Assembly (NCBI GenBank): GCA_016932015.1
Contig: JAFGDQ010000037.1
Coordinates: 19,918-83,917, forward strand
Direction: 5' to 3'
Source of the DNA: Spirochaetota bacterium
GTDB lineage: Bacteria > Spirochaetota > UBA4802 > JAFGDQ01
DNA length: 64,000 bases
In this document: in pieces, positions 11,058 through 16,705 of the stretch
Layout: each line of letters opens with the position of its first letter
How positions within the stretch are numbered: the first letter of the stretch is position 1
Notes under the pieces: generated by a model
What the model was told of the DNA's origin: nothing
Seen by the model: only the letters and a program-made list of their open reading frames with translations
The model's database searches: none
Program-made: the position numbers and the translations under genes

Positions 11058-11093
11058 TTAACAAAACCATATCCCTGCCAAAGGCAGGGATAT
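11058..11093 (-). terminator. rho-independent terminator after cheY
   Basis: perfect 11-bp inverted repeat atatccctgcc/ggcagggatat (11069-11093), followed on the minus strand by GGTTTTGTT. Confidence 0.6.
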
Positions 11094-11157: not shown

Positions 11158-11517
11158 CTATGAAAGAGCTTTTTCAGCTGCTTTTTGCAATCTTTCCGGT
11201 GGGAATGGTTTTACAACAAAATCTTTAACTCCGATTTTAATTGCTTTTGTTAATAAATTTTCCTGACCAAGTGCTGTAACCATAATAATTTTTGCAGATG
11301 GATCTATCTGTAATATCTCCTCTGCCGCTTCAATACCGTCTTTCTCCCTCATTGTAATATCCATTGTAACAAGATCCGGCTTAAGCTTTTTATAATTTTC
11401 TACTGCAATATTTCCATTTTCAGCTTCACCGACAATTTCATGTCCCTTCGGTACAAGAGCATCTTTGACTAGTGTTCTCATGAATTTCGCATCATCTACT
11501 ATTAAAATCCTGGCCAT
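11158..11517 (-). CDS. cheY: chemotaxis response regulator CheY
   Basis: 119 aa; receiver domain with DD...D...K pattern. Confidence 0.85.
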   Translation of the reverse strand: MARILIVDDAKFMRTLVKDALVPKGHEIVGEAENGNIAVENYKKLKPDLVTMDITMREKDGIEAAEEILQIDPSAKIIMVTALGQENLLTKAIKIGVKDFVVKPFPPERLQKAAEKALS

Positions 11518-11663: not shown

Positions 11664-12734
11664 TTATAACTTACTGATAATTGAATTAGCAATATCATAT
11701 AAGGAAACTACTTCATTAATTGCTCCATTCTGAATAGCTACTCTGTTCATTCCAAAAACAACTGAAGTTTCTTCGTCTTGTGCAAAAGTATATCCTCCAA
11801 GATCTTTAACCTTCTTGATACCCTTTGCTCCATCCTGCCCCATTCCGGTCATTATTACACAAACTGAATCTTTGCCGTAATTATCCGCAACAGAATCAAA
11901 CATTACATCAATAGACGGAATATGGCCTGACACTTTATCTCCTCGCACCAATCGGATGACTTTTTCTCCGTTCTCTTCAGCAATTTTTATATGTGCATCC
12001 CCGGGAGCCAGATAACCGCATCCTGGATAAATCTTGTCCCCGTCCTCAGCCTCCTTTACATTCAGCCCTGAATTATTATTAAGCCTCTCTGCAAAGGCTT
12101 TGGTAAATCCTGCAGGCATATGCTGGACTATGAATACCGGTGCAGGAAAAGCGGCAGGTATTTTTTTGAATATACTCACTAACGCAGAAGGCCCCCCGGT
12201 TGAAGTACCGATAGCAACTGCCTTATCGCTCGTCTCCTGAATTACTTCCAACTGCCCTTTTTCCTCTACAAGTTCAGGTTCTTTTTTTAATACAGTCTCA
12301 GGTTCTTCTTTTTTTATCGGTATTTTCAGTTCTGCATGATGAACCTGCTTAACTTTTTCAATTAATACACCAGACAGTTCTTTCAATGTTATTGGAAGAT
12401 TTGTGGCCGGTTTAGGAATAAAATCAACAGCCCCGTATTCAAGTGCCTTAAATGTTTCTTCAGCTCCATGCTGAGTTAAAACACTTATCATTATTACAGG
12501 CTTCGGATTTTTTTCTATAATCCTTTTTAAAGATTCTAGGCCGTCCATTACCGGCATTTCAATATCCATTGTAATAACATCAGGATTTAACAAATCGTTT
12601 TTATAGATAGCTGTCTTGCCATTATTTGCTGTACCCACAACTTCGATATCTGGATCGCTTGACAGAATATCGGTAATAACCTTTCTCACCAGAGAGGAAT
12701 CTTCTACTACAAGTACTTTTATCTTTTTTTCCAT
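11664..12734 (-). CDS. cheB: chemotaxis protein-glutamate methylesterase CheB (REC + methylesterase)
   Basis: 356 aa; N-terminal receiver domain; C-terminal GTSTGGP and catalytic His/Asp region. Confidence 0.9.
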   Translation of the reverse strand: MEKKIKVLVVEDSSLVRKVITDILSSDPDIEVVGTANNGKTAIYKNDLLNPDVITMDIEMPVMDGLESLKRIIEKNPKPVIMISVLTQHGAEETFKALEYGAVDFIPKPATNLPITLKELSGVLIEKVKQVHHAELKIPIKKEEPETVLKKEPELVEEKGQLEVIQETSDKAVAIGTSTGGPSALVSIFKKIPAAFPAPVFIVQHMPAGFTKAFAERLNNNSGLNVKEAEDGDKIYPGCGYLAPGDAHIKIAEENGEKVIRLVRGDKVSGHIPSIDVMFDSVADNYGKDSVCVIMTGMGQDGAKGIKKVKDLGGYTFAQDEETSVVFGMNRVAIQNGAINEVVSLYDIANSIISKL

Positions 12735-12798: not shown

Positions 12799-15700
12799 TC
12801 AGGAATTCTTCAACATATTTATCATTCTCTTCAAAGATTCTGTTTCTGATAAGATTATCAAATTTCCAATAACTTTATCATCCTGATGGAAGAAATAAGT
12901 ATTCATGGACATTGCATAATCACCGGTAATATTATTCTGTAATAATACGGAATCAACTGTGGACTGTATATAATCATGAATAACAGTTGGGACATCAGGC
13001 CTGATTGATAAATTTATTTTCTCAGATAATGCATTAATCATTGAAGAACCTATTATGTTTGTCAGCTCTTTCAAAGCTGATTCACCATCCTGATCAAGTG
13101 TCTTGGTTTTTCCTGTAGACATTCCGTACAATAAATCAATCAGTTCAAAGCCGGATTCTTCGGTAAAACTGAAAAGGACAGCACCGTTAATATCTCCGGT
13201 TACAGGCATAAAAACACCAAGATAAACCGTATCAATGTCACCTATTGATTTTGCAATATTTTTTATTGGTACAATTTCTACCTCTGGAATTGAAAGTGAA
13301 ACGCCTTTATCAAGAATCCTGGAAAGAGACTCAGCCGCATTTGCCGCTCCGATATTTGCAATTACGTCAATTTTTTCCATGTCTTTTTTTTCTATCTCAA
13401 GTGACTTAATAATAACGTCATCACTATCGACATTTACATTGGACATAATATTGTCCTCAAGTTCCTGTCTGAACCCGTTTAAAGTTTCTTTAACTTTATC
13501 CTCAATATCATCATCTTTGACAAAGTTTTTTTCTTCAGCTGACTGATCACTTATAACAGTAGTCGATTCAGCCATCTTTTTATCACTATCATTAACTTCA
13601 TCTTTGTAAGACTGAATAATATCGTCTTTTGTATCACTTGTTATATCTTCAGGCTGATCCGGTATTTTCTCTATGGTCTCCGGTTCTTCAACAACATCCT
13701 CTTTATTAAATATAATATCTTCTGTAATATCCTTTTCCTCATGCTCTGAAGAGATATCAATTCCAAACTCTGTGTCCTCATCTATAGTAAGACTTTCCGA
13801 TGATATGTCTGTGACTGGAGTCGGTTTAGGTTTTACTGGTTCAGACTTGATTTTTCCCGATTCCTCCTGTTCATCAAACAGAATCACAGGCTCTGGTTCC
13901 ACTTCAGAGACTTCTTTTTCAATTTCCACGACCCTTTCATCAATTCTTTTAATGTCGAGGTCTCCTGATTTCCTGTATCTGAGCATTTTTTCTTCGTCAG
14001 AAATAACTTTATTAATCATGGATGCAATATCAAGAATCAGACAGATACTGCCGTCACCGAGTATTGATGCACCGGAGAGACCGTCAATATTAGTATAATT
14101 CTCTTCAAGCGACTTAATTACTATTTCCTGTTTTCCTTCAAGGCTATCAACAATAACGCCTATTTTTCTGTTTCCATATCCGACAACTACCACAGGAGTC
14201 TTCATCTCTTCGGTAAGAGAACTGTTTATTCCGATAAATTCGTTTAGCCTTAACAGGGATAATATTTCACCTCTTAAATTAATTACCTCCCTGCCTTCAA
14301 TAGTGGTAATGTCTGATTGTATTATCTTTATTGTTTCTATAACATCAGGCAGCGGAATCGAATACATTTCCTCCCGTACTTTGACCATAATTGCCGGTAT
14401 AATTGCCAGAGTCAGCGGGAATGCCAGAATAAAATTTGTACCCATTCCCGGTTCCGTCTCTATGCGGACACTGCCGTTTAATTCGTTCACAGTCTCTTTT
14501 ACAACATTCATGCCAACACCGCGGCCGGATATATCTGTTACAATATCCGCTGTTGAAAATCCTGGATGAAAAATAAACTCGCAGATGTCATCATTGCTCA
14601 TATTATCTAACATCTCAGGACCCACAAGATTTTTCTTCAAAGCAATCTTGCGAATTTTTTCAATATCAAGGCCTTTACCGTCATCCCCGACTTCTACAAA
14701 AATCTGATTACCTCCCTGATAAGCATTAATACTTACAACAGCCTCTTCAGGCTTGCCAAGCCTTCTTCTTTCCTCAGGCTTCTCGACACCATGATCAATT
14801 GAATTTCTCAGGAGATGCAGCAGTGGTTCTCCAATTACATCAATGACCTTTTTATCAAGCTCAGTATCCTCTCCTTTTATTACAAATTTAATATTCTTCT
14901 TAAATTCCTTTGCAAGATCTCTTACAGGCCTGTTGAACCTTGAAAGCACCTGTCCAATAGGAACCATTCTTGTCTGCATTATCCGGCTTTGTAAATCTTT
15001 AGCGATTCTGGACATCTGATCCATTCTGTTCTTGAATTCGCCTATAATTGACTTGTCCGTATTTGTTTTTTTAAGATCATCAAAAAGACTGAAGAATCCG
15101 GAATTTGCGATAACAAGCTCCCCGACCGTGTTTAAGAGCAGATCAAGTTTATCAACAGATACTTTTACTATTTTCAGACTTACAGCTTTTTTATCTTCCT
15201 TTCTTCTGCCGAAAGCTATCTCTTCATGATCTTCATCATATAAAGCAGAAGTCTTATCAACTGTAATATTCTCCGGAGACTGAGAAGTTATTTCTGCTTC
15301 AGAAGGATTTTCTTCCTCCTTTTCCTGGAAAAGAACTTCTTTATCATGAAATTTCATAGCTGTTTTATTGTTCTTTTTCGATAGAGATACTTTCCTAATC
15401 TCAACCCGATTAATCTGATCAATAACACATACTTCTTTTATTTTTTCAACCGGTTGGTCAGTAAAAAATGTTATTTTGAATGAACTGTCCTTCCAGTCAT
15501 CAGAAATATTATCAACTTCAGGTTCACTTTTTATTACTTCAACAAATTGATCCAGGCTGTTCATTATTAACTGAATTTTTATCCATTTCATCTGAGCATC
15601 TGGATCTATTTCTATGTATAATTCATAACAGGGCTTTTCAATTTTGAGCCCTCCTGTCAGAGTTTTAATTTCATTTTGAGTATATTGAATTTTAGAATTT

Positions 15701-16143
15701 TCTTTCTTTTTTTCTTTTAAACCTGATTCTTTCGCCGGTTCAACGGCATTGGAATTATCTGCAATGTTTTTTATTTTTCTGATCGTCACTGATAAATCCT
15801 GTGTAGGCTCTTCTCCTGAAGCAACAGAATTAATTATTGAATTTATTAAATCAAAGCACTCAAAGAGTACCTCGATTATTTCCGGTGTCATCTTCATTGT
15901 TTCATCCCGGACACCCTGTAGAAGATTCTCCATATGATGAGCAAGATCGCTAAGATCATTTAAGCCTACAAAAGCAGCAGAACTCTTAAGGGAATGAGCT
16001 GTTCTGAAAATACTGTTTATTGTTTCTGTGTGAATCTGGTCCGGATTTTTTTCAAGTTCCAGAAGACTCTGGTTCAATTCCTGCAGTTGTTCATCTGCTT
16101 CTTCAAGAAAAATGTCCTGATATTCCCCAATAGTAAAAGCCAT
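12799..16143 (-). CDS. cheA: chemotaxis histidine kinase CheA with C-terminal CheC/CheX-like phosphatase domain
   Basis: 1114 aa; P1 HPt (FRTAHSLKSSAAFVG), P2, P3, HATPase (NSIDHGVE..GRGVGM), P5 CheW-like domain; about 150-aa acidic linker; C-terminal about 220 aa carrying CheC-family motifs (ANIGAANAAESLSRIL and ELTNIIGSSMINALSE). Confidence 0.9.
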   Translation of the reverse strand: MAFTIGEYQDIFLEEADEQLQELNQSLLELEKNPDQIHTETINSIFRTAHSLKSSAAFVGLNDLSDLAHHMENLLQGVRDETMKMTPEIIEVLFECFDLINSIINSVASGEEPTQDLSVTIRKIKNIADNSNAVEPAKESGLKEKKKENSKIQYTQNEIKTLTGGLKIEKPCYELYIEIDPDAQMKWIKIQLIMNSLDQFVEVIKSEPEVDNISDDWKDSSFKITFFTDQPVEKIKEVCVIDQINRVEIRKVSLSKKNNKTAMKFHDKEVLFQEKEEENPSEAEITSQSPENITVDKTSALYDEDHEEIAFGRRKEDKKAVSLKIVKVSVDKLDLLLNTVGELVIANSGFFSLFDDLKKTNTDKSIIGEFKNRMDQMSRIAKDLQSRIMQTRMVPIGQVLSRFNRPVRDLAKEFKKNIKFVIKGEDTELDKKVIDVIGEPLLHLLRNSIDHGVEKPEERRRLGKPEEAVVSINAYQGGNQIFVEVGDDGKGLDIEKIRKIALKKNLVGPEMLDNMSNDDICEFIFHPGFSTADIVTDISGRGVGMNVVKETVNELNGSVRIETEPGMGTNFILAFPLTLAIIPAIMVKVREEMYSIPLPDVIETIKIIQSDITTIEGREVINLRGEILSLLRLNEFIGINSSLTEEMKTPVVVVGYGNRKIGVIVDSLEGKQEIVIKSLEENYTNIDGLSGASILGDGSICLILDIASMINKVISDEEKMLRYRKSGDLDIKRIDERVVEIEKEVSEVEPEPVILFDEQEESGKIKSEPVKPKPTPVTDISSESLTIDEDTEFGIDISSEHEEKDITEDIIFNKEDVVEEPETIEKIPDQPEDITSDTKDDIIQSYKDEVNDSDKKMAESTTVISDQSAEEKNFVKDDDIEDKVKETLNGFRQELEDNIMSNVNVDSDDVIIKSLEIEKKDMEKIDVIANIGAANAAESLSRILDKGVSLSIPEVEIVPIKNIAKSIGDIDTVYLGVFMPVTGDINGAVLFSFTEESGFELIDLLYGMSTGKTKTLDQDGESALKELTNIIGSSMINALSEKINLSIRPDVPTVIHDYIQSTVDSVLLQNNITGDYAMSMNTYFFHQDDKVIGNLIILSETESLKRMINMLKNS

Positions 16144-16183: not shown

Positions 16184-16705
16184 TTATTCAGTTTTTTCAG
16201 GAAACAACATATTATCCAACTTCAGGATAATCATCAATCTGTTCCTTAACCTGCCTACACCATGAATAAATTCCGCTGAAACACCTTCAATCAATTCAGA
16301 CGGAGAACTAATATTATCTTTGGGAATTCTGATGACCTGAAAAACTCTATCAACCAGTAATCCAATAAGTTTGCTTCCCACGCCAACAACAATTATTCTT
16401 GTTTCTTCCGTAAATTTATTCTCAGAATAACCGAATCTCTTTCTAACATTGACAACCGGAATAACTTTACCCCTAAGATTAATTACACCCATTATAAAAT
16501 CCGGTGTATTAGGAAGCCTGCTAATATCTACAACTCGTAATATTTCATGAATTTGAAGAATATCGATCCCGTATTCCACCTCATTAGACAATGAAAAACT
16601 TACAATCTGTTCGATATCATCCTCTGAAACAAGTTCATCATCCTGTTCAATACTGTCTTCATCAAGCGTTGAAACTGTACGTTCAACGATTTCGTTTTTA
16701 TTCAT
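16184..16705 (-). CDS. cheW: chemotaxis coupling protein CheW
   Basis: 173 aa; CheW domain (GIDILQIHEI...GVINLRGKVIPVVN). Confidence 0.9.
   Translation of the reverse strand: MNKNEIVERTVSTLDEDSIEQDDELVSEDDIEQIVSFSLSNEVEYGIDILQIHEILRVVDISRLPNTPDFIMGVINLRGKVIPVVNVRKRFGYSENKFTEETRIIVVGVGSKLIGLLVDRVFQVIRIPKDNISSPSELIEGVSAEFIHGVGRLRNRLMIILKLDNMLFPEKTE

Follow-up and report, generated by a model that had tools for sequence, protein, structure and literature searches.

Does a chemotaxis kinase that ends in a CheC-like region carry its own CheY-P phosphatase, and is such a protein a new kind of chemotaxis component? The question is raised by a gene, here termed cheA::cheC, in a 64,000-nucleotide stretch of a Spirochaetota genome (the window; contig JAFGDQ010000037.1), which an earlier note based on the letters of the DNA had described as a CheA kinase fused to a CheC/CheX-like phosphatase domain. 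Here, we analyze the domain content, fold, active-site motifs, conservation, and operon context of this protein.

The 1,114-residue ORF reported in the earlier note has the length and coordinates given there; its strand, on which the note was silent, is minus (Table 1). A plus-strand reading of the same interval gave only a stop-ridden translation and was rejected. The gene starts with the ATG at 16143, preceded by a GGAG 8 nt upstream. A protein that is 100% identical (P0010) is present in nr, where NCBI currently names it "CheW" and gives "Spirochaetes bacterium" as its label.

Table 1. Features of the cheA::cheC locus (positions in the window; residues of the encoded protein)
Feature	Residues	Position	Strand	Evidence and remarks
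cheW, first gene of the operon		16184..16705	minus	Pfam CheW, E 8e-37
cheA::cheC		12799..16143	minus	1114 aa + stop codon; uninterrupted ORF; ORF list, translation
P1 (Hpt)	8-96	15856..16122	minus	Pfam Hpt, E 3.3e-18
P2, CheY/CheB (response-regulator) docking	172-250	15394..15630	minus	Pfam P2, E 8.8e-14
P3, dimerisation	325-391	14971..15171	minus	Pfam H-kinase_dim, E 1e-15
P4, ATP-binding kinase domain	441-578	14410..14823	minus	Pfam HATPase_c, E 2.3e-15
P5, CheW-like, receptor-coupling	585-711	14011..14391	minus	Pfam CheW, E 2.7e-28
Linker	716-879	13507..13998	minus	Acidic, unconserved, indel-rich; 33% D+E, 13% K+R
Amphipathic pre-helix	880-912	13408..13506	minus	Conserved N-terminal extension that free CheC lacks
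CheC-type phosphatase domain (predicted)	917-1114	12802..13395	minus	NCBIfam CheC model positions 3-199 of 201, E 4.5e-33
Degenerate first active-site helix	923-941	13321..13377	minus	V927 at Glu position; N930 retained
Intact second active site	1022-1052	12988..13080	minus	S1022-x3-E1026-x2-N1029-x22-P1052
cheB, receiver + methylesterase		11664..12734	minus	Pfam CheB_methylest, E 8e-67; Response_reg
cheY, presumed substrate		11158..11517	minus	Pfam Response_reg, E 3.6e-28; D8/D9, D53, T81, K103 present
Terminator-like hairpin		11069..11093	minus	11-bp stem, then T run; ends the four-gene operon; consensus pattern scan only

All Pfam matches of the protein exceed the gathering scores, including those of the PF04509, HATPase_c, and CheW profiles, which the earlier note had named as a check. 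The five domains P1 to P5 are present in the expected order, in agreement with that note, and the phospho-accepting His of P1 is H50 within the motif AHSLKSS. Residues 5-710 are covered by full-length alignments to NCBIfam CheA models. Judged by these matches, the protein contains a complete CheA in its first 715 residues. The best NCBIfam model for this part is the archaeal CheA_Halo, at 492 bits and thus below its equivalog cut-off of 950 bits; this result appears loosely consistent with an assignment to the F1 class.

The C-terminal CheC/CheX-superfamily domain proposed in the earlier note is present and comprises ~200 residues. In addition to the NCBIfam CheC match, it is recognized in two stretches by CheC PF04509 (clan CL0355; 41.5 bits; cut-off, 22) and by CheX PF13690 (29.8 bits; cut-off, 27). 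The Thermotogales CheC equivalog NF041093 (NCBIfam) scores 114.8 bits with the full protein and 119.5 bits with the isolated domain against a cut-off of 250, and on these scores the domain is a homologue of Thermotogales CheC and not an equivalog. In the entire CheA-CheC protein, there was no significant Pfam match to FliM and none to the CheZ family. Two AF2 models (pLDDT of 78.7 and 82.9; ~90 for the CheC core in the deeper model) have the two-half, pseudo-symmetric alpha/beta fold of CheC and not the compact, single-site topology of the ~150-residue CheX. Among solved structures, the CheC chain of the CheC-CheD complex (2f9z) is the closest. The comparison with CheX that the earlier note had suggested gave a partial alignment by Foldseek (~145 residues; query-normalised TM ~0.5). 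We conclude that the fold is of the full two-half CheC type and not of the CheX type; the proposed likeness to CheX holds for the single remaining active site and does not extend to the fold.

As the earlier note had recognized, the two halves differ in the state of their active sites. The first repeat, DVIANIGAANAAESLSRIL, is found exactly at residues 926-944 and has V927 in place of the catalytic Glu, while N930 is kept. At this position, at least 78 of 80 orthologous sequences have L, V, or I and none has Glu; N930 is retained in 79 of the 80. Accordingly, the first half lacks the classical two-site CheC signature. This site is lost in every CheA-CheC fusion examined, whereas the nearest free-standing CheCs (~205 aa) have E-x-x-N at site 1 and retain Glu and Asn at both sites. 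Nevertheless, the site 1 helix is still highly conserved (N930, G932, A937, and S941), which suggests that it retains a non-catalytic surface. The second repeat, ALKELTNIIGSSMINALSE, is found exactly at residues 1023-1041 and, together with S1022, supplies E1026 and N1029. Pro residues follow N1029 at +20 and +23, of which the latter, P1052, fits the consensus D/S-x3-E-x2-N-x22-P. None of S1022, E1026, N1029, and P1052 varies in 80 orthologues from different species, although the domain as a whole is only 45-78% identical among them, arguing that purifying selection acts on catalysis. Among the best conserved parts is also the alpha2' segment, H1056-D1057-Y-x-Q1060-S...D1064-S1065 (D1057 in 80 of 80; Q1060 and D1064 in 79 of 80 each), in which D1057 aligns with the Asp in the segment ...LVIDMISAI of Thermotoga maritima CheC.

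The ~164-residue acidic tether between the two parts is presumably disordered. Its column conservation is 0.04-0.29, and its length varies from 67 to 181 aa (median, 125) among 70 aligned full-length sequences. It is followed by the pre-helix, which begins with IEDKVKETLNGFRQELEDNI and for which AF2 predicts a helix at residues 877-903 (pLDDT 66-73). In the same 70 sequences, L888, F891, and L895 are present in all, V884 in 69, and E894 in 68; the pre-helix is thus found throughout the main clade and also in the distant representatives P0138 and P0141. This conserved pre-helix and the loss of site 1 in all fusions examined are the details that our analysis adds. An internal start at M922, which would yield a free CheC, was considered, but it is not a conserved feature: most orthologues have Leu at position 922, and only 12 to 14 have Met.

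The gene is always part of a cheW-cheA::cheC-cheB-cheY-scpA-scpB cluster, with cheW syntenic in every locus whose sequence extends upstream to it. cheY lies two genes downstream of the fusion and is 85-96% identical across loci with a complete cheY. The earlier note had stated that the window has no separate cheZ, cheC, or cheX gene, and this was borne out. Pfam scans of nearly all ORFs of at least 100 aa in the window (the exceptions being two ORFs of rpoB/rpoC size and ORFs nested in longer ones on another strand or frame) revealed no further CheC, CheX, CheZ, or CheD domain, and a clade-specific CheC HMM matched the cheA::cheC ORF alone in the window and no additional CheC-like ORF in the 80 loci. 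Similarly, no che genes, including cheD, were present upstream of cheW among the ORFs scanned in three relatives. As a side observation, scanning the window for tRNAs and Rfam families identified one tRNA-Thr only, which is unrelated to cheA::cheC.

The complete fusion is present in at least 69 species-level Spirochaetota genomes; in 69 of the 70 loci with complete upstream sequence, it is a single ORF of 1,048-1,154 aa. Relatives are carried by at least 101 genomes (genome scan) and more than 120 protein clusters (full-length search), and more distant variants of the fusion are also found (P0138, P0141, P0144, P0156, P0218, P0149, P0150, P0190, and P0142). A protein search with the domain only gave just nine matches, mostly fragments from short contigs, a number that reflects the word-index prefilter and not rarity. 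All carriers found are uncultured MAGs. The 80 related genome records are all Spirochaetota MAGs, many titled "uncultured Leptospirales" or "Leptospiraceae", and no names of cultured Leptospira appeared among the best 120 matches to the window protein or to the protein of an "uncultured Leptospira sp." MAG. In precomputed Pfam annotation, nearly all of the 120 best relatives have a CheC-clan domain (PF04509 or PF13690) together with CheA domains. Moreover, Berry, Andrianova and Zhulin reported in 2023 CheC/CheX fusions to CheAs of the F1 class, the major chemosensory class of the Leptospirae, in this spirochete class and proposed a dual kinase/phosphatase role for them (PMC10782961). The part of that survey devoted to these fusions is a single paragraph, which does not treat fold type, active-site state, linker, pre-helix, or synteny. 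In the literature, we found this survey only and no experimental characterization of CheA-CheC/CheX fusions. The idea in the earlier note that the architecture was unrecorded is therefore not tenable, given the published fusions, the annotation of the 120 best relatives, and the identical protein already in nr: the architecture is common and already annotated in a known clade, while the structural claim stands. Thus, such fusions are the norm in a large, uncultured group of spirochetes and are already known rather than a new class of system.

CheX is the usual CheY-P phosphatase of spirochetes and, according to published structures, works as a dimer. Compared with CheX of Borrelia burgdorferi (3hzh) and T. 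maritima (1xko), which has ~150 residues and a rearranged topology, the domain described here keeps both CheC halves. It differs from free CheC of T. maritima (1xkr/2f9z) and Bacillus subtilis, which has Glu and Asn in both sites, in the loss of the site 1 Glu, in the additional conserved N-terminal helix, and in being covalently tethered to CheA. FliY is a CheC-like phosphatase that is fused to FliN; both of its active sites are retained, and a peptide at its N terminus binds CheY. FliY (T. maritima 4hyn) is located at the motor, the destination of the signal, whereas the fusion would be at the kinase, its source. With CheZ of E. coli, which associates with CheA-short, it shares the logic of co-localizing kinase and phosphatase at the receptor cluster; however, CheZ has an unrelated fold and its association is non-covalent, partial, and adjustable, while the fusion is covalent and strictly 1:1. 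CheA3 of Rhodobacter sphaeroides and CheA-receiver proteins (CheAY), both cited in the survey (PMC10782961), likewise combine a kinase and signal termination in one polypeptide, but the relevant region of CheA3 is unrelated to CheC, and the receiver of CheAY is a phosphate sink and not a catalytic phosphatase. The closest counterparts are the CheA-CheC/CheX fusions of the Leptospirae in that survey, which have the same Hpt-P2-dimerisation-HATPase-CheW-CheC/CheX order, occur in the same phylum, and have the same proposed role. The window protein appears to be a member of this set, with nothing essential that differs.

We suggest, with a probability of roughly 0.6, that the protein is a bifunctional enzyme that brings kinase and CheY-P phosphatase to the receptor array in a 1:1 ratio, the function that the earlier note had proposed and that we also judge the most reasonable. 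According to this model, P4 would autophosphorylate H50 on P1, CheY and CheB would dock on P2, and P5 would be the link between the kinase and the receptors and CheW of the array; the acidic tether and the short conserved helix would then lead to the CheC-type domain, where only the second active site (E1026 and N1029) would be catalytic. The mechanism would be that of CheC, CheX, and FliY: Glu and Asn of this site would reach into the CheY-P active site and accelerate acyl-phosphate hydrolysis. With kinase and phosphatase in one polypeptide, source and sink of CheY-P would be co-located at a fixed 1:1 ratio. In analogy to the CheZ/CheA-short complex of E. coli, this arrangement should keep CheY-P spatially uniform over the length of a long thin cell, as modelling of co-localized CheA and CheZ indicates (PMC2673030), and should leave the kinase-to-phosphatase ratio insensitive to expression noise. 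The five CheA domains together with the CheC domain, the invariant site 2, the single ORF, the synteny, and the nearby canonical CheY support this reading; that the domain is catalytic, that it acts on CheY, and that its placement and fixed ratio are of benefit is what we infer from them. On the other hand, futile cycling is a risk when a phosphatase sits within nanometers of CheY on P2, unless the enzyme is weak or under control, and without site 1 only half of the potential catalytic capacity is left.

For free CheC of B. subtilis, control of CheD has been described as the main mode of action, and there the loss of CheD binding (CheC D149, at the interface) impairs chemotaxis far more than the loss of phosphatase activity (PMC3513319). 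By extension, the CheC module could mainly be a regulatory CheY-P sensor that binds CheD or acts on the kinase, giving CheY-P-dependent feedback or adaptation at the array as for CheC in B. subtilis, with phosphatase activity being secondary. The closest structure, the CheD-bound CheC chain, fits this possibility, as do the conservation of the alpha2' segment with D1057, Q1060, and D1064, the alignment of D1057 with the T. maritima Asp, and the persistence of the site 1 helix after its catalytic residue was lost in every fusion. Nonetheless, we consider it unlikely: cheD was found neither in the window nor among the scanned upstream ORFs of the three relatives, the equivalence of D1057 and B. 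subtilis D149 is inferred only, and a pure binding role would not call for invariant E1026 and N1029. The loss of site 1 with conservation of its helix, together with the gained pre-helix, also makes it conceivable that the tail is a feedback device in cis, in which CheY-P binds the pre-helix or the degenerate site and alters kinase output or recruits or releases CheD. We regard this idea as speculative and unlikely; if true, an adaptation loop would be built into the kinase polypeptide, which is undescribed for any CheA.

It is very doubtful that the domain is a weak or dead CheY-P binding module, serving as a sink or scaffold near the kinase in the manner of the FliM middle domain or receiver-domain sinks. 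One of its two sites is already degenerate, and CheA fusions with a phosphate sink are known (CheA-receiver; PMC10782961), but all 80 sequences have the complete S-x3-E-x2-N-x22-P signature, which FliM lacks, and sequence profiles group the domain with CheC and not with FliM. Finally, a frameshift, a lost stop codon, or a misassembly could have merged adjacent cheA and cheC genes. The linker is of low complexity and error-prone, and in one locus (L016), the sole exception to the single ORF, kinase and CheC lie in two overlapping frames with the frameshift inside the linker. The same single ORF in the other 69 independently assembled genomes, the occurrence of the fusion in protein clusters from NCBI, JGI, ENA, and Logan, and the absence of a conserved Met or start codon before the CheC module effectively refute such an artefact. 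Altogether, we favor the tethered phosphatase.

Spirochete motors are located near both cell ends. Whether the CheY-P phosphatase resides at the array, as CheZ in E. coli, or at the motor, as FliY in Bacillus, is a recognized design variable of chemotaxis. The database name "CheW" is corrected by the domain analysis; E1026 and N1029 are the residues specified for mutation, and the conserved pre-helix and a site 1 loss specific to the fusions are testable features. If the tethered-phosphatase reading is right, this spirochete lineage would have hard-wired the location at the kinase side, using a CheC-type enzyme at a fixed 1:1 ratio, and would thereby offer a natural experiment, in long thin cells, on the co-localization of source and sink and on robustness to expression noise.

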